Virus record (IMG/VR): IMGVR_UViG_2548876858_000010
Coordinates: 1-8,233 of that record
Direction: 5' to 3' (one strand)
DNA: 8,233 nucleotides
Source: a virus
Lineage: Duplodnaviria > Heunggongvirae > Uroviricota > Caudoviricetes
Shown here: piece by piece, positions 259 to 6,552 of the stretch
Layout of the letters: each line of letters opens with the position of its first letter
Position numbering within the stretch: the stretch's first letter is position 1
Made by a program: the position numbers and the translations under genes
The notes under the pieces: generated by a model
The model's database searches: none
Told to the model about the DNA's origin: nothing
Seen by the model: the letters and a program-made list of their open reading frames with translations, nothing else

Positions 259-458
259 AAATAAAGGGATAACGATGATAGTTTGAGAAAAACAGAAATA
301 ACACTTTTGTTGCAGCGCATGGTGCCGGGTGCCTCCCGGTGAATTCAGCCGGTGTCACTGAACCCGCGTCGGCTTGCCTATAACATAATAAATGCTACCT
401 ACACCAGTCGCCCCTCCGCACAGGGGGATTCACCATGCAGTAGTGTTTTTAATAAACA

Positions 459-489
459 GCAAATAAAAAAATCAAGCATTATTTATGCT
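459..489 (-). terminator. Weak AT-rich hairpin plus U-tract at the end of the TerB/small-membrane operon
   Basis: Minus strand: AGCAU-AAAUA-AUGCU followed by UGAUUUUUUUAUUU. The stem is only 5 bp and AT-rich and overlaps the last codons of the 55-aa ORF. Confidence 0.3.
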
Positions 490-639
490 GTTTCTTTTTA
501 TCACCGACCACAGCAATACCACAATGCCGCAGACCAGCACCCCATCCGCCAGCACCGACATGATTCTGCTGGTGAAATCCACCATCACCACCAGAAACAG
601 CAGGAGTGCAGCCACAGTCAGGCGCAGTTTTACCGTCAC
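472..639 (-). CDS. Small hydrophobic protein (55 aa, two predicted transmembrane segments), translationally coupled to the TerB-like gene
   Basis: GTG start at 639..637 overlaps the TerB-like stop as GTGA; GGAG lies 8 nt upstream. Manual translation: MTVKLRLTVAALLLFLVVMVDFTSRIMSVLADGVLVCGIVVLLWSVIKRNSINNA. Below the ORF-track cutoff; start codon uncertain (in-frame ATGs at codons 19 and 27). Confidence 0.35.
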   Translation of the reverse strand: MTVKLRLTVAALLLFLVVMVDFTSRIMSVLADGVLVCGIVVLLWSVIKRNSINNA

Positions 640-1068
640 AGGTGATTCTCCAGACGAAGACCCAGAACACCGGCAATCTCTTCCAGCACCTTGCGCTCTT
701 CCGGCTCAATTTCGCCTTCTGCCTCCGCAATGGCCACCGCCACATCCAGCACATCTTCCGCTTCACGCGTATCGTGTTTCACATCCTCGATCTCACGTAA
801 CGCCGCACGACGACCAATTTTAAAGTTCGTATCCAGCTGACCGATAATGGTTGCGCTCATCGCATTAATTTCTGACGTAAACGCGGACAGCGCTGGCTGA
901 TTACGCAGTACCTGTTCGATCTTCGCTTTCTCGGAAGCCTCACATTCACCATCTGCACAGGCCACCAGGTATGCGGCGTTAATCACCGCCTGTGCCAGAT
1001 CGCGTTTTTCAAACTTTTTAATTTCCGTTGCCGCTCTGCGGGCTTTTTTTACCAAAAATACCAAACAT
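636..1068 (-). CDS. TerB-domain (tellurite-resistance TerB-like) protein with an apparent frame break at an A7 run near the 5' end
   Basis: Track ORF 636..1097 translates to a TerB-like sequence (…KKARRAATEIKKFEKRDLAQAVINAAYLVACADGECEASEKAKIEQVL… acidic C-terminus). The only ATG with a good SD (AAGGAA-N7-ATG, ATG at 1068..1066) gives MFGIFGKK then hits a stop after 16 codons. Removing one A from the A7 run (plus T7 at 1044-1050) joins it to the long frame. Confidence 0.65.
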
Positions 1069-1237
1069 CGTGACGTTCCTTTGGGTGGGTGAGCCAACGC
1101 CCGGGAGCGATCTGCCCACAGAGAAAGTCACACTGACCACTCCATAAGCTCCCCCCGAAAGGCTCTGTGGTTGGTATGCGCCGGGCGTGGTGCGGATACA
1201 AAAAAGGTCCGCAAAAGCGAGCGAGGGAAAATAAGTG

Positions 1238-1314
1238 TGGTGCGTTGTACTGGGTTCGAACCAGTGACCGATTGCTTAGAAGGCAATTGCTCTGTCCGGC
1301 TGAGCTAACAACGC
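1238..1314 (-). tRNA. argO: tRNA-Arg, anticodon TCT (77 nt)
   Basis: Manual cloverleaf: GCGTTGT/ACAACGC acceptor, GCTC/GAGC D-stem, anticodon loop CTTCTAA, ACTGG-TTCGAAC-CCAGT T-arm, 3' ACCA encoded. Symbol is by analogy with the Stx-phage ileZ-argN-argO triplet and is not verified. Confidence 0.85.
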
Positions 1315-1327
1315 AGAATACCGATAA

Positions 1328-1404
1328 TGGACCGCCATCGGAGACTCGAACCCCGCGAAACCAGCTTCGAAGGCTGGCGTTCTATCCCGATGAGCTAATG
1401 GCGG
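1328..1404 (-). tRNA. argN: tRNA-Arg, anticodon TCG (77 nt); one D-stem mismatch and discriminator U
   Basis: Manual cloverleaf: CCGCCAT/ATGGCGG acceptor, anticodon stem CCAGC/GCTGG with loop CTTCGAA, T-loop TTCGAGT, 3' TCCA. D-stem GCTC/GAAC has one mismatch. Symbol by analogy only. Confidence 0.75.
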
Positions 1405-1405
1405 T

Positions 1406-1481
1406 TGGTGGCCCTTGCTGGATTTGAACCAGCGACCTGGCGATTATGAGTCGCTCGCTCTCACCACTGAGCTAAAGGGCC
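1406..1481 (-). tRNA. ileZ: tRNA with CAT anticodon, ileX-like (probable lysidine tRNA-Ile2; elongator Met not excluded)
   Basis: GGCCCTT…AAGGGCC acceptor, anticodon loop CTCATAA, T-loop TTCAAAT, CCA encoded. Close to the E. coli ileX sequence from memory. Separated by 1 nt from the next tRNA. Confidence 0.85.
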
Positions 1482-1521
1482 GGGAGCAGAATAATAACGG
1501 TGCATAATTAATTCTTCAATA

Positions 1522-2580
1522 TCATCCGTTCTGGCTGACTAAATCCTGTACTTCCCGAACCGTCTGCTCAAAACGTTCAGTCTCCAGTTCAACACCAGTT
1601 GCACGACGTCCCAGCGCCATCGCTGCTTTGACTGTCGAACCCGACCCCATGAAGAAATCTGCAACCAGGTCTCCCGGACGACTGCTTGCGCTGATTATCT
1701 GCTGCAACATTTCTGCCGGTTTTTCGCACGGATGTTTCCCGGGATAGTAATGCATCGGTTTATGCGTCCACACATCGGTGTACGGCACCTGCACCGTCAC
1801 ACCGAAATACCGCCGCAGATGCTTATATTCACTCTGCAGTTCCGTATACTGCCGGTTCAGTTCACTGTATGTGCTGACCAGCTGGTGGTGTGGCTTTTCC
1901 AGTTCACAGCGTTGATGTTTTTCTGCTGCAACACGCGCAAACAACGCCTGTAATTTCAGATAATCGCCTTCGTTCGGCAACTGCCACTGACTGATACCAA
2001 ACCAGTGCGAAACCATGTTTTTCTTTCCGGTGGCTTCCGCTATCTGTTTTGACGTTATTCCCAGTGATTTACGCGCATCACGAAAGTAAGAAATCAGCGG
2101 GGCCATGACGTGCTGTTTTAGCTCGCGCCCCTTTGCCGCATAGCCGTCATTTTTGGGCTGGTATGGCCCCTGATAATGTTCTGCAAACAGAATGCGTTCT
2201 GTTGCCGGGAAATACGCCCGCAGGCTTTCCTTGTTGCATCCGTTCCAGCGTCCGGACGGCTTCGCCCAGATAATATGGTTCAGCACACTGAAGCGTTCAC
2301 GCATCATGATTTCGATATCAGATGCCAGGCGATGACCACAGAACAGGTAAAGACTTCCGGCAGGTTTCAGCACCCGCCAGAACTGCGCCAGACACTGGTC
2401 CAGCCACTTCAGGTAATCATCGTCGCCCTTCCACTGGTTATCCCAGCCCTCAGGCTTCACTTTAAAGTACGGCGGGTCCGTGACTATCAGGTCAACAGAA
2501 TTTTCGGGTAACGACCGGATAAATTCCAGGCAGTCGGCGTTGATTAACTCACAACTGGATATTTTTACAGTATTAAGCAT
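1522..2580 (-). CDS. Orphan DNA methyltransferase, beta-class (likely N6-adenine; N4-cytosine not excluded), 352 aa
   Basis: Track ORF. Catalytic DPPY motif near the N-terminus (LIVTDPPYF) and AdoMet motif FFMGSGST near the C-terminus, the order typical of beta-class amino-MTases. No adjacent restriction endonuclease ORF. Confidence 0.9.
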   Translation of the reverse strand: MLNTVKISSCELINADCLEFIRSLPENSVDLIVTDPPYFKVKPEGWDNQWKGDDDYLKWLDQCLAQFWRVLKPAGSLYLFCGHRLASDIEIMMRERFSVLNHIIWAKPSGRWNGCNKESLRAYFPATERILFAEHYQGPYQPKNDGYAAKGRELKQHVMAPLISYFRDARKSLGITSKQIAEATGKKNMVSHWFGISQWQLPNEGDYLKLQALFARVAAEKHQRCELEKPHHQLVSTYSELNRQYTELQSEYKHLRRYFGVTVQVPYTDVWTHKPMHYYPGKHPCEKPAEMLQQIISASSRPGDLVADFFMGSGSTVKAAMALGRRATGVELETERFEQTVREVQDLVSQNG

Positions 2581-2672
2581 GGATCATTAAGCCTGTCTCT
2601 GATAGGCTCATTCTGCTTTTGCGCAAAGCAGTGGGCCTGAGGTTTGCTTGTGAACCCAACGCATGAGCAGAT

Positions 2673-2703
2673 GGCTGGTGGGTGCCCCTAACACCCACCA
2701 GCC
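2673..2703 (-). promoter_or_regulatory. Perfect 12-bp inverted repeat with 7-nt loop in the methyltransferase leader
   Basis: ggctggtgggtg-cccctaa-cacccaccagcc read directly. No U-tract follows on either strand, so it is not an intrinsic terminator. Further hairpins at about 2613-2631 and 2590-2606. Confidence 0.35.
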
Positions 2704-2716
2704 GCCCATTTACCAC

Positions 2717-2744
2717 AAATAAAAAAGCCTTCACTGCGGAAGGC
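2717..2744 (-). terminator. Rho-independent terminator at the 3' end of the small HTH-like ORF
   Basis: Minus strand GCCUUC-cgcagu-GAAGGC followed by UUUUUUAUUU. The stem includes the stop codon. Confidence 0.5.
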
Positions 2745-2928
2745 GTCTGTAACAACCGAACTGATAGTCTGCCAGACCCGCCATAACCAGCTGGGTCAGT
2801 ATTAACTGGCAGCGTTCGCGTGAAAGGTAAGTATTCTGTGCAATCTCCCCGACTGTCGCCGGTTCGGTAACGCTTAATTCATTAAACACTACTCTGGCGG
2901 TTTCTGTCATATCCTGCTGTTTTAGCAT
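2731..2928 (-). CDS. Small protein (65 aa) with a helix-turn-helix-like segment; possible DNA-binding regulator
   Basis: Internal ATG at 2928 preceded by AAGGGAAAAAGAC; the longer track ORF (to 3015) would run into the pR'/tR' region. Sequence MLKQQDMTETARVVFNELSVTEPATVGEIAQNTYLSRERCQLILTQLVMAGLADYQFGCYRRLPQ. Function is inferred. Confidence 0.5.
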   Translation of the reverse strand: MLKQQDMTETARVVFNELSVTEPATVGEIAQNTYLSRERCQLILTQLVMAGLADYQFGCYRRLPQ

Positions 2929-3048
2929 GTCTTTTTCCCTTTTCCGGTTAACGTGACACACCAATAACTCTTGTCGAAAAAGCCAGCAAGCTGAAAGACA
3001 GGTATTCACCGCCACCAGCGCGTTTACTGTACTGACGCGATTTCAGTC

Positions 3049-3072
3049 ATAAAAAACCCGCCAGGCGGCGGG
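3049..3072 (-). terminator. tR'-like intrinsic terminator downstream of the late promoter
   Basis: Minus strand CCCGCC-gccu-GGCGGG followed by UUUUUUAU, about 60 nt downstream of the predicted pR' start. Confidence 0.6.
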
Positions 3073-3121
3073 GTGTAAAAAATCTTCTAACGTCAGGCAT
3101 AAAACGCCCATCGTTAGAGCA

Positions 3122-3149
3122 AATTTACCACAGATTCGGGAAAAATCAA
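3122..3149 (-). promoter_or_regulatory. pR'-like late promoter with Q-utilisation region
   Basis: Minus strand TTGATT-(16 nt)-TAAATT then TGCTCTAACGATGGG, resembling lambda pR' (TTGACT-N17-TAAATT-TGACTCAACGATGGG) as recalled. Lies immediately downstream of the Q stop. Confidence 0.55.
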
Positions 3150-3154
3150 CAACA

Positions 3155-3976
3155 CTATCGCGTTACCCTCTTTAACTGCCGCTCCGCCCATGCCTCTTCA
3201 ATGTCAAACCGAACCACCAACGTATCGTAAAAGCGTTTCACTGATTTTTTCCACGTATCAAGCGTGATAGCACTCGTCACTTTGCATATGGCATTAAATG
3301 CCTCCGTTGATGGCAGCCTTTCACAGCCACGACCACCACAACGCTGGCAATCTCTGATAACAGGCATACCACGTTTTACCGACTCTTCACGATGAATGGC
3401 GACACCACGCCCACGGCAATCCTTACAGGCGGTGGAAACCTCACCCTTTCCGCCACACTCCGGACAGGCAACTTTTACCACCTCCCTGACTTTTTTCCAT
3501 TCTTCCCAGTAAGACGGATACACGCCTTTTGTGCACTTTGCCCACACTGGTGGCTTACCATCCGGATACTGGATCTTGTTTGTAAAAACCTCGCTTTCAA
3601 TAAATTTTTTTCCGTGACAGCAGGGGCACTGTTTTTTGCTCGCCGCGCTACGGGCATAATCTTCAAACGCATACGAAGCCATAATGCGCATCACTACCGG
3701 TTTTATTTCTGCCGGAAGTTTTCTCAACGCCGCCACACGATCGCACCGACTGAGTGCATAATCTGCCAGTAATTCTGTTGCCCGCGCCCTGTCATTCATA
3801 CTGATGCCCATTTTCCCCAGGAACGCAGAAAACCCCATCTCAGCCCGATTCTGTGTCATGCCCTGCGCGGCCATCACATCAGTGATACTCAGCGCATCTT
3901 TTGACGTTGAGGCCGATGCATCGGTCAGGCCAGGGGATTTTGGGGAGTAGTATTTCGGTAAATCTTCCAGTTTCAT
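3155..3976 (-). CDS. Q-family late-gene antitermination protein (273 aa) with DnaJ-like CxxCxGxG zinc-finger repeats
   Basis: Track ORF. ATG overlaps the rusA stop (ATGA). Motifs CPECGGKG, CKDCRGRG, CQRCGGRG plus CPCCHGKK. Directly upstream of pR'/tR'. Size and position resemble Qin quuQ-type Q proteins (recalled). Confidence 0.8.
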   Translation of the reverse strand: MKLEDLPKYYSPKSPGLTDASASTSKDALSITDVMAAQGMTQNRAEMGFSAFLGKMGISMNDRARATELLADYALSRCDRVAALRKLPAEIKPVVMRIMASYAFEDYARSAASKKQCPCCHGKKFIESEVFTNKIQYPDGKPPVWAKCTKGVYPSYWEEWKKVREVVKVACPECGGKGEVSTACKDCRGRGVAIHREESVKRGMPVIRDCQRCGGRGCERLPSTEAFNAICKVTSAITLDTWKKSVKRFYDTLVVRFDIEEAWAERQLKRVTR

Positions 3977-4347
3977 TTTTTGACCTGCCCTTCAAGCATT
4001 ATGGGGTAAATCTTCACCCCCAGACGTCCACCAGATACTGGCTGACCACGAACGATATTGATTTCATCAAACTGCTCATCGTCCATTAACACTCCCGCAT
4101 GCGTCAGCGCATCCAGCGGTGCTTTCAGGATATTGTCCAGGTCGCGACGACGCTTATCCGGTGGCTCTGCAATCACCTTTATCGCCAGCCTTCCGGACAG
4201 GCTTAATTTCAGCCGCTGCTGGCGAACAATAAGCGCCACAGCCCGGCGATAACGCTTTCCCTCCTCCGAGATAAAATATGTGCTGCCACGGCGTCGCCAG
4301 TAAGTGTTCACCGTCGGCGGGTAAGGTAAAACCAAATCTATGAGCAT
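3973..4347 (-). CDS. rusA: RusA Holliday-junction resolvase (124 aa)
   Basis: Track ORF MLIDLVLPYPPTVNTYWRRRG…DKRRRDLDNILKAPLDALTHAGVLMDDEQF… matches the RusA family signature. Strong SD AAGAGGTGA upstream. Confidence 0.9.
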   Translation of the reverse strand: MLIDLVLPYPPTVNTYWRRRGSTYFISEEGKRYRRAVALIVRQQRLKLSLSGRLAIKVIAEPPDKRRRDLDNILKAPLDALTHAGVLMDDEQFDEINIVRGQPVSGGRLGVKIYPIMLEGQVKK

Positions 4348-4359
4348 CAGTCACCTCTT

Positions 4360-5406
4360 TTACCCAAGCACGCCAGTTGCAAAGGCGTGATCAAGAAAAC
4401 GAAAAATTAAATCAACCTGAGAACCATGCTTTTCTTCGAACGCCAGAGGATCCGCATGAAGCTCGTTGTGATGCTCCCGACACAGCGGTAGCGTGAAAAT
4501 ATCGTGAGATTTTGTCCCCATTCCGCCCTGACCATGACCAATCAGGTGATGGGGATCGTCGGCTGGCTTACCACAACACGCACACGGCTGTGTCTTCACC
4601 CAGCGTGTGTATTTCTCGTTAACCCAGCGGCGACGTTTAGGTCGTTTCATGAAAGATTCCGGAGACTCAGGATCAACGGCAATGCTGACCACCGTCTCTT
4701 CCTGTGGCGGGTTTTGCTGGTGGGCGTGAGGCAGCGGCGCAAGATTTTTTGTGCGCTGCTTCAGTATGCTGGTGGCGGTCTGCTCTCCCGGTACGATGTC
4801 GCTTTCACGGTACATTGAGCGGATTTTTTCCGCACGCAACCCCAGCGAACGACGTAATACCGCTTCCGGTAGCGCGTCCGCCACCTGATTGCGGACCGCC
4901 CACCAGGATAATTCAGCCAGCGATAATTCCCGTTCCTGCGAGCCATTCATTGCATGGAGTATGACGTCAATCATCCATGCAGACAGGTTTTGGTGAGCAA
5001 GTTGCCCGAGTGATTCGGAGGTCTGGTCGCGCAGCTGGTTGTCGCAGTGCCAGCACAACACCATTGCGCCGGTACCATAACGGTGAATGACGGTTTCACT
5101 GTGGTGATAATCGCCGTGTGGCCACTGGCAGGATTTAACATGGCGCAGTAACCAGTCAGACAATGCGCCAGCGCCACCAGCAGCACGAATCACTCGTTCG
5201 TCGCTGAAAAATGGCAGTAATGATTTATCCTCCGCCAGCGGCTGGCGAACGGCAGGAACGACCCCGGACGACAGATTACGCATGCTTTTCGGTTCCGGCT
5301 CCACCAGTACCCGGGTATTGTGGAATACCGGCATGGATTCACAGCCCGGCTTAACGATCACCAGCCCGAGTTCCGGTACCAGAACAGGTCGAAGTAATAC
5401 CCGCAC
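4360..5406 (-). CDS. ydfU: DUF968/YdfU-like prophage protein with C-terminal HNH-like Cys/His motif (348 aa)
   Basis: Track ORF. GTG start at 5406 preceded by GGAGG-N4; alternative ATG at 5334. C-terminus CACCGKPADDPHHLIGHG…LCREHHNELH. Symbol by synteny with Qin (hokD-rem-ydfU-quuQ) and similar length, recalled not verified. Confidence 0.75.
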   Translation of the reverse strand: MRVLLRPVLVPELGLVIVKPGCESMPVFHNTRVLVEPEPKSMRNLSSGVVPAVRQPLAEDKSLLPFFSDERVIRAAGGAGALSDWLLRHVKSCQWPHGDYHHSETVIHRYGTGAMVLCWHCDNQLRDQTSESLGQLAHQNLSAWMIDVILHAMNGSQERELSLAELSWWAVRNQVADALPEAVLRRSLGLRAEKIRSMYRESDIVPGEQTATSILKQRTKNLAPLPHAHQQNPPQEETVVSIAVDPESPESFMKRPKRRRWVNEKYTRWVKTQPCACCGKPADDPHHLIGHGQGGMGTKSHDIFTLPLCREHHNELHADPLAFEEKHGSQVDLIFRFLDHAFATGVLG

Positions 5407-5752: not shown

Positions 5753-6004
5753 TTATTCTTCTGAAAAAGCAGAAAAGCCAGCTTTTATTCCGATCTCTTT
5801 CAATGCCTGTAATGAAGTGACAAACTCACCGTCGCGCAAGATAAATCCGTCCGTCACTCGGGCATCCACAAAATTAATTAACGCAGCCCCATTTTTTTGC
5901 AAACACACAATGCGGTAATGACTAACAATATTTCCATTTTCAACGCACACAGCATAGAGGCCATCTTCACAAAAAATTTTACGCAGTTCTTCGATGTTCA
6001 TCAT
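5753..6004 (-). CDS. rem: Rem-like small prophage protein (83 aa)
   Basis: Track ORF with tandem ATG ATG start and SD GGAAGGA. Same length and same position (between hok and ydfU-like) as rem in Qin; sequence identity not verified. Confidence 0.55.
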   Translation of the reverse strand: MMNIEELRKIFCEDGLYAVCVENGNIVSHYRIVCLQKNGAALINFVDARVTDGFILRDGEFVTSLQALKEIGIKAGFSAFSEE

Positions 6005-6220: not shown

Positions 6221-6376
6221 TTACTCCTCAGGTTCGTAAGCTGTGAAGACAGCGACCTCCGTCTGGCCGGTTCGGATTCGTACCTCGCAGAGGTCTTTCC
6301 TCGTTACCAGTGCCGTCACTATGACGGTTAAACAGATGACGATCAGGGCGATTAACATCGCCTTTTGCTGCTTCAT
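6221..6376 (-). CDS. hok: Hok-family type I toxin (51 aa)
   Basis: Manual translation MKQQKAMLIALIVICLTVIVTALVTRKDLCEVRIRTGQTEVAVFTAYEPEE, matching the HokD/RelF sequence as I recall it. Missing from the ORF track because it is under 60 aa. Confidence 0.92.
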   Translation of the reverse strand: MKQQKAMLIALIVICLTVIVTALVTRKDLCEVRIRTGQTEVAVFTAYEPEE

Positions 6377-6432
6377 AGCCTGCTTCTCCTTGACCTTTCG
6401 GTCCGTAAGAGGCTAATCTCTATGTGTCGCAT
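6373..6432 (-). CDS. mok: mok-like leader reading frame (19 codons) ending in TGA overlapping the hok ATG
   Basis: ATG at 6432 with GAGG 8 nt upstream; MRHIEISLLRTERSRRSRL. Start region aligns with the R1 mok start (cuAUG…GAUAGCCUCUUAC) from memory. Shorter than R1 mok. Confidence 0.45.
   Translation of the reverse strand: MRHIEISLLRTERSRRSRL
6390..6419 (+). promoter_or_regulatory. Sok promoter candidate (TTGACC-N18-TAATCT), antisense to the hok/mok translation-initiation region
   Basis: Hexamers read on the plus strand in the position equivalent to the R1 Sok promoter. Confidence 0.45.
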
Positions 6433-6495
6433 AGATATGGCCTCAGATTAATGTTAAGCGTCTTGCAGGACGCGTAATGTTAACTGGGGCTTTTC
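6426..6495 (+). ncRNA. sok: Sok-like antisense RNA (approximate extent; 3' end not resolved)
   Basis: Inferred from the promoter at 6390-6419 and complementarity to the hok mRNA leader. Contains hairpin GCGTC-ttgcag-GACGC; I could not identify a clean terminator. Confidence 0.35.
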
Positions 6496-6552
6496 TCTAT
6501 CTGCCTTTTGGTGTTCATGCCTGAGACAGATAGCCTCAAGCACCCGCAGTCA

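Follow-up and report, generated by a model that had tools for sequence, protein, structure and literature searches.

Three tRNA genes ahead of stx are a textbook feature of Stx phages, and the locus studied here raises the question of what such a trio is, and what it may do, in a prophage from which the toxin is missing. The window, that is, the whole stretch of DNA that was analysed (8,233 nucleotides), was the entire contig AIBE01000267.1 of assembly GCA_000446645.2. It is a fragment of an stx-negative E. coli lambdoid prophage, which on the minus strand leads from nin-region to late-region genes (Table 1). The trio is very probably a phage-borne cassette of the lambdoid late region, homologous to ileZ-argN-argO and placed beside a polymorphic slot; it would have a promoter of its own and a role in rare-codon supply, and its UCG member would be dispensable.

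Table 1. Features of the window, listed in the order in which they are met on the minus strand.
Feature	Position	Strand	Evidence and remarks
sok RNA	6374-6545	-	RF01794, 106.7 bits
Hok, 51 aa	6221-6376	-	PF01848
Rem-family ORF	5753-6004	-	
DUF968 protein	4360-5406	-	
RusA	3973-4347	-	
Late antiterminator Q, 273 aa	3155-3976	-	PF03589, 2e-49
Terminator-like hairpins 3' of Q	3121-3105 and 3072-3057	-	Terminator scan
Small ORF	2731-3015	-	
DNA N6/N4 methyltransferase, directly upstream of the trio	1522-2580	-	PF01555, 3.1e-43
Promoter-like site, TTGAAG-17-TATTAT	1491-1519	-	Consensus scan
CAU tRNA, ileX-type (tRNA-Ile2), ileZ homologue	1406-1481	-	ARAGORN; Rfam 72.5 bits; PGAP tRNA-Ile
tRNA-Arg(UCG), argN homologue	1328-1404	-	ARAGORN; Rfam 44.4 bits; C11·A24, C1-G72, U73
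tRNA-Arg(UCU), argO homologue	1238-1314	-	ARAGORN; Rfam 69.1 bits; cloverleaf intact, A73
Hairpin and T-run after argO, left slot edge	1200-1223	-	CGCTCGC-TTTT-GCGGACC-TTTTTT, read from sequence
Cargo segment: 5' leader, TerB, 55-aa peptide	458-1188	-	Junctions by blastn against Stx2a and empty alleles
TerB	636-1064 (TTG start) or 636-1097	-	PF05099, 5.5e-13, 49.7 bits (cut-off 24.4)
DUF3927/TciB-like membrane peptide, 55 aa	472-639	-	PF13064 on the called gene; PHROG 1470
STnc100-family structured sRNA element, right slot edge	284-464	-	RF02076, 117 bits
Terminator-like site, strong, after STnc100	256-238	-	Terminator scan

The three tRNA genes and their setting

ARAGORN called exactly three tRNAs in the window, with anticodons CAT, TCG and TCT and all on the minus strand, at coordinates identical to those of the original prediction (1238-1481). 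Rfam called the same three, each above the gathering score of RF00005 (29 bits), and the bit scores and E-values (8e-15 for CAU, 4.6e-7 for UCG and 7e-14 for UCU) put the calls far beyond chance. The spacers were 1 nt (CAU-UCG) and 13 nt (UCG-UCU). Stem integrity was judged by fixed cloverleaf pair counts, which replaced minimum-free-energy folding; such folding of the single tRNAs gave no cloverleaves, and this says nothing on function. An ORF on the plus strand (1167-1427), which overlaps the tRNAs, was rejected as a spurious by-product of ORF listing.

The CAU tRNA shared 68 of 76 bases with K-12 ileX, with a compensatory change at the 6-67 pair, and retained C4-G69 and C5-G68, the pairs reportedly involved in discrimination by TilS. 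By its sequence it is of the tRNA-Ile2 type and is predicted to read AUA after lysidine modification; copies identical to it were labelled tRNA-Ile by PGAP, and the label Met given by ARAGORN follows from the unmodified anticodon alone. The identity elements of E. coli tRNA-Arg are A20, C35 and U/G36. In both Arg tRNAs of the window the D-loop ended in GGA(T/C)A with A20 present, and the anticodons were TCG and TCT. The UCU tRNA had zero stem mismatches on the cloverleaf pair count and a purine discriminator (A73; A73/G73 being the purine forms), and the UCG tRNA had U73 at that position.

In the nin region, the hok/sok type I toxin-antitoxin locus was followed by the Rem ORF, as in Qin/Rac-like nin regions of E. 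coli prophages. The Q protein was of the same type as quuQ of Stx2_EH1910. The two hairpins that follow the Q gene are probably tR' of the Q-dependent late promoter region. The hairpin at 3072-3057, just downstream of Q, read CCCGCCGCCTGGCGGG and was followed by a T-run. The original prediction had the tRNAs downstream of Q, which holds for their order but not in the sense of direct adjacency, the small ORF (2731-3015) and the methyltransferase lying between; the same separation of Q and tRNAs by a small ORF and a methyltransferase was found in many Stx2 phages, and the methyltransferase position matched that in Stx2a phages. In some relatives a related hairpin (CCCGCCGCCGAGCGGG, with a T-run) abutted the promoter-like element of the tRNAs on the upstream side, with no methylase between.

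The promoter-like element ended, at its -10 hexamer, 9 nt from the first tRNA base. Among the matches listed, 131 related copies were compared, and the -35 position was TTGCAx or TTGAAG in 122 of them and the -10 hexamer TATTAT in 120, in the same register (about 92%). This register was kept across three upstream contexts (methylase 3' end, terminator hairpin and Q-adjacent), with divergent spacers, again among the matches listed. The evidence for a promoter consists of the consensus match and its conservation, and the start is a predicted one. Judged by this arrangement, the promoter, the three tRNAs and the hairpin with its T-run would make up an autonomous unit with a sigma-70-type promoter of its own, whose expression would not depend on Q.

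A polymorphic moron slot directly follows the trio

Between the hairpin after argO and the STnc100 element, the DNA that directly follows the trio is a polymorphic moron slot. Homology of the window to a Stx2a phage and to a cargo-free allele ended at about 1189-1197 and restarted at about 457, the start of the STnc100 core, and blastn found no stx2AB homology between window positions 457 and 1189. Genes stxA and stxB were missing downstream of the tRNAs, and the slot held TerB and DUF3927. The STnc100 element (gathering score of RF02076, 47 bits) lay directly 3' of stx2B in Stx2a phage L001 and directly 3' of the trio in empty alleles.

A search with an exact 42-nt ileZ pattern gave 135 cassette copies among the matches listed (129 from 120 IMG/VR loci, the others from the window and further loci), and the state of the slot was scored from the last tRNA to the STnc100 core in the 96 of these copies that had both flanks. 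The slot was gene-free (111-146 nt) in at least 31 loci, held TerB and DUF3927 (about 800 nt) in at least about 24, an unrelated 108-aa ORF (about 730 nt) in at least 18, and Stx2AB (about 1440 nt) in at least 7-8. Rarer contents among the matches listed were a 311-aa methyltransferase-like ORF, TerB behind extra small ORFs, and others. With flanks shared and contents differing (nothing, TerB/DUF3927, Stx2AB or other ORFs), the suggestion that the trio adjoins a cargo-exchange site was borne out.

In Stx2a, PPyecE and empty-slot alleles the terminator-like hairpin at the left edge of the slot was GGCTCGC-TTTT-GCGGGCC with a T-run of 7-9; in the window it was weakened, and the terminator scan gave no call for it. 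At the right edge, the related locus L022 carried the STnc100 element in two copies, and a 2026 preprint links STnc100 to PasD sRNAs. Positions 41-124 of the window matched the DNA that precedes the holin gene in relatives. Both the window and EC12 lacked the nanS-p/SASA esterase gene that is usually found between STnc100 and the holin.

The cargo itself agreed with the original prediction of a TerB gene and a membrane-protein gene, the second being the DUF3927/TciB-like 55-aa membrane peptide downstream of TerB (PF05099). TerB fell into PHROG 632 (tellurite resistance; 1.4e-65) and the 55-aa peptide into PHROG 1470 (TciB-like; 5.5e-28), both of the moron category, and PADLOC gave no defence-system match for either. 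An A7 run (GGTAAAAAAAGCC) put the ancestral TerB ATG (1068-1066), which has an AGGA Shine-Dalgarno sequence upstream, out of frame, and translation of TerB may be poor; where relatives have A6 or TTCAAAAAGAAAACC, the ATG is in frame. The A7 allele was present in 14 of the 31 TerB loci sampled among the matches listed. A sequencing error at the start of TerB was rejected as the source of the A7 run, which is also found in EC12 and EDL933; the start chosen by PGAP is the TTG at 1064.

Constraint on the middle tRNA and role of the cassette

Genes of the window used, per 1000 codons, ATA 11.7, AGA 6.4, AGG 8.2, CGA 4.7 and CGG 14.0 times, and the corresponding values for E. coli K-12 are roughly 4-5, 2-3, 1-2, 3.5 and 5-6. 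The cassette may top up the tRNAs for AUA, AGA/AGG and CGA/CGG, since the prophage genes use those codons at two to six times the typical E. coli level. The comparison of codon usage that the original prediction had proposed gave a divided outcome: relative to the approximate K-12 values the prophage genes were enriched as a group, and the methylase had 5 ATA and 7 CGG, but TerB was not enriched (143 codons with 0 ATA, 1 AGA and 0 AGG, CGA or CGG). The 55-aa peptide had 2 ATA and 2 AGA, and Stx2A 15 ATA per 320 codons. Because TerB is nearly free of ATA, AGA, AGG, CGA and CGG, the trio is not matched to the TerB cargo, and the supply would serve the phage genome as a whole. In a published comparison by t-test, lambdoid phages that have these tRNAs did not differ in codon adaptation from those that lack them (PMC4631060), which tempers the case for supplementation.

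The middle gene departed from its neighbours. In the D-stem of the UCG tRNA, GCTC stood opposite GAAC, giving the C11·A24 mismatch that had been noticed in the original prediction, at a cost of about 10 Rfam bits (44.4, against 54.8-56 for canonical Stx-phage alleles); the EDL933 copy, an identical UCG allele, likewise scored 44.4 bits. The unusual discriminator base noticed with it was present too (U73), but as a family-wide trait rather than a defect of the window copy: U73 and C1-G72 were found in 33 of 33 distinct 77-nt alleles among the matches listed, toxin-phage copies included, and are therefore uninformative on the copy in the window. This tRNA may be impaired, as had been suspected; the mismatch and the weak constraint across copies make that plausible.

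Among the matches listed, the middle tRNA was intact in 43 of 118 copies, had one to three mismatches in 39, and was rearranged or deleted (any length other than 77 nt) in 36; ARAGORN called none of the rearranged copies. Among the same matches argO was intact in 88 of 98 copies, and ileZ and argO were both nearly invariant and intact. On these sequences, the middle tRNA is visibly less constrained than both its neighbours. Compensatory changes (pairs 7-67, 28-44 and 31-41) occurred only in TTT-anticodon alleles out of the 33 distinct 77-nt alleles, and TCG alleles varied solely by G·U or broken pairs (both among the matches listed). By cargo, argN was intact in 8/8 copies with Stx2AB, 9/28 with TerB, 9/21 with an empty slot and 0/18 with the 108-aa ORF among the matches listed; this pattern is a lead only, because the copies are related and the counts are not independent events.

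A common argN allele kept both acceptor halves and had the anticodon arm swapped for unrelated sequence (…GAGCAGACGACACGATAACAGGGTTGTTGGTGCGGGGGCGGG…, 80-81 nt). It was carried by L025, L014, L005, L006 and about 30 other loci among the matches listed, was linked to the 108-aa ORF, and received no call from ARAGORN; PGAP annotated it as tRNA-Val in one genome and made no call for it in a second. In L041, a copy linked to Stx2AB, the middle anticodon was TCT rather than TCG.

How far this erosion reaches in the window bears on what the cassette delivers. A non-functional UCG relic, with the cassette working as a doublet of Ile2 and Arg-UCU, is a serious possibility, although we would sooner expect a tRNA that still works to some degree. 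The lowered Rfam score (44.4 bits instead of about 55) points to a relic, as do the shares of intact and of rearranged or deleted copies (43 and 36 of the 118 sampled among the matches listed) and the lack of compensatory changes in TCG alleles among those matches. E. coli decodes CGA by an inosine tRNA and CGG by tRNA-Arg(CCG), so that the UCG tRNA is not needed there, and this too counts for a relic. Against it, the score still exceeded the Rfam gathering score, ARAGORN and PGAP both called the tRNA, and A20, C35, G36, the T-loop and the encoded CCA were all kept; a single C·A in the D-stem can be tolerated, and the identical allele persists across several prophages, EDL933 included. Another view of the same gene takes it as an evolving, context-dependent element, the C11·A24 allele of the window being an intermediate in loss and upkeep being tied to cargo (stx) or to escape from defence. 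In relatives the middle scaffold bore UCG, UCU or UUU anticodons, the UUU form with three compensatory stem changes (among the matches listed); this view is unlikely to be the right one. Under the preferred reading, a rare-codon cassette with a dispensable UCG member, the window copy would be mildly damaged and may work poorly.

The switching of that scaffold among UCG, UCU and UUU, with the three stem changes of the UUU form (matches listed), would also suit a cassette that mainly shields the phage or lysogen from tRNA-cleaving toxins or defences; examples are anticodon nucleases and colicin D, which attacks tRNA-Arg. Some phages are known to carry tRNAs with which they evade defences directed at tRNAs, and the family of the adjoining cargo is labelled colicin resistance or cell-division inhibition in PHROGs. 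The anticodon loops were however standard-looking, PADLOC gave no match for the cargo, and the codons in which the phage genes are enriched are exactly those matched by the three anticodons, so that shielding as the main role is quite unlikely. It is extremely unlikely that the tRNAs are not working phage genes at all, and are instead a leftover host integration site or a captured piece of chromosome. tRNA genes have been suggested to mark a region captured by ancestral phages (PMC7366253), and a preprint on Pas sRNAs takes nearby tRNA matches as integration hot spots. The trio nevertheless lies inside the late operon, with the methylase and TerB as neighbours and no integrase or att site anywhere near, and a host attachment site was rejected on these grounds; the tRNAs are present, moreover, in genome records of Stx-converting phages. 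Conservation of the promoter-like element in every context and the near-invariant, intact ileZ and argO (both among the matches listed) also argue against a host origin, and K-12, to our knowledge, offers no tRNA-Arg(UCG) gene to capture. The preferred reading remains that of a phage-borne cassette of the late region.

Frequency of the trio and comparison with known cassettes

Of 5426 complete E. coli genomes, 2575 matched the trio alone at 80% coverage or more, the largest number of copies in one genome being 13, and 681 matched, at the same threshold, the block from the trio to STnc100, TerB and DUF3927 included. The full window had its best match in these genomes at 97% over 83%. In a scan of one genome per species, all carriers of the ileZ pattern belonged to Escherichia or Shigella, apart from two metagenome bins whose labels are implausible. 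The toxin-free trio is the usual state and not the exception. Because roughly half of the complete E. coli genomes carry the trio, seeing it is evidence neither of a toxin phage nor of toxin loss, which is a useful point of calibration. The feature is not new and is very common, PGAP and PHROGs naming every part of it; the arrangement is not unusual, since it is annotated in hundreds of genomes, the TerB version including that of the reference O157:H7 strain. The slot boundaries, the conserved promoter-like element and the erosion of the UCG tRNA might make a comparative note, if confirmed by phylogeny-aware statistics.

The window matched 445 phage records, among which Stx1a, Stx2a and Stx2c converting phages were numerous, and the trio as query matched 277 phage records at 80% coverage or more. 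Against Stx2a phage Stx2_EH1910, mean column identity was 95% for the trio with short flanks, and identity was about 92% over window positions 1189-4674 (a shared region of about 3.5 kb). Against 933W (Y10775) the trio had 90% identity, and 933W and other Stx2 phages reached 90-92.6% over 100% of the query. The gene order in Stx2_EH1910 was ydfU, rusA, quuQ (the 273-aa Q), small ORF, DNA methylase, tRNA-Met/Ile, tRNA-Arg, tRNA-Arg, stx2A and stx2B. A Met-Arg-Arg tRNA set has been placed between q and stx2a/c/d (PMC7366253), and a published order runs from rusA through Q, DNA methylase and tRNA genes to stxAB, yjhS and lysis (PMC3491183); the latter order was also found in Stx2a phage L001. Full-text literature searches found no paper naming ileZ, argN and argO all three. 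Homology and agreement with the layout in the literature identify the trio of the window as the ileZ-argN-argO cassette: at 90-95% identity to the Stx2-phage trio and in the same gene context, the match named in the original prediction held, and alignment with Stx2 phages showed the cluster to be homologous to their triplet.

Relative to K-12 ileX and argU, the tRNAs of the window are additional copies carried by a phage, and their stems have diverged. The UCU tRNA had the anticodon loop, D-arm and T-loop in common with K-12 argU, and in the comparison with ileX/argU the 27-43 pair was A·C in place of G·U. We know of no tRNA-Arg(UCG) gene in E. coli K-12, and hence of no counterpart there of the UCG tRNA of the window.

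A four-tRNA cluster (CAU, UUU or UCU, UGU, UCC) of other Escherichia and Shigella lambdoid prophages had the same ileZ and a 1-nt spacer after it. The second tRNA of the cluster is homologous to argN, with the anticodon switched to UUU or UCU and three compensatory stem changes; unlike in the window trio, it was followed by Thr and Gly tRNAs, and no STnc100 core was found downstream of this cluster. Carriers were L008, L011, L007, L013 and about 15 IMG/VR loci among the matches listed. The 1-nt CAU-UCG spacer (window position 1405), which is the rule in the four-tRNA variant, was found only in the window and in EC12 among the CAU-UCG-UCU trios sampled from the matches listed. This pattern hints at recombination between cassette types.

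Two prophages, of strains EC12 and EDL933, shared with the window the order tRNA-Ile, tRNA-Arg, tRNA-Arg, TerB-family protein, DUF3927 protein. In the EC12 prophage the trio was 100% identical to that of the window and the whole block 98.6%. In EDL933, a toxin-less prophage at 2.42 Mb (NZ_CP120944.1) carried tRNA-Ile, tRNA-Arg, tRNA-Arg, TerB, DUF3927, SASA esterase and holin, with an argN allele identical to that of the window; it differed from the window in having another Q directly upstream, with the methylase missing, and in having the SASA esterase (nanS-p) after STnc100, where the window and EC12 run from STnc100 towards holin.

Stx2 phages (933W, VT2-Sakai and Stx2a phages) had the same anticodons, order and strand as the window trio, the same placement after Q and a DNA methylase and before the lysis region, and the hairpin after argO and the more distal STnc100 element in common with it. 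The window differed from them in the absence of stxAB, its slot being filled by TerB and the TciB-like peptide; in the spacer between ileZ and argN (1 nt, against 7-9 nt in Stx2-phage alleles); in the C11·A24 of argN, unlike the Stx2-phage trio; and in the discriminator of argO, which was A73 in the window and G73 in Stx2 phages.
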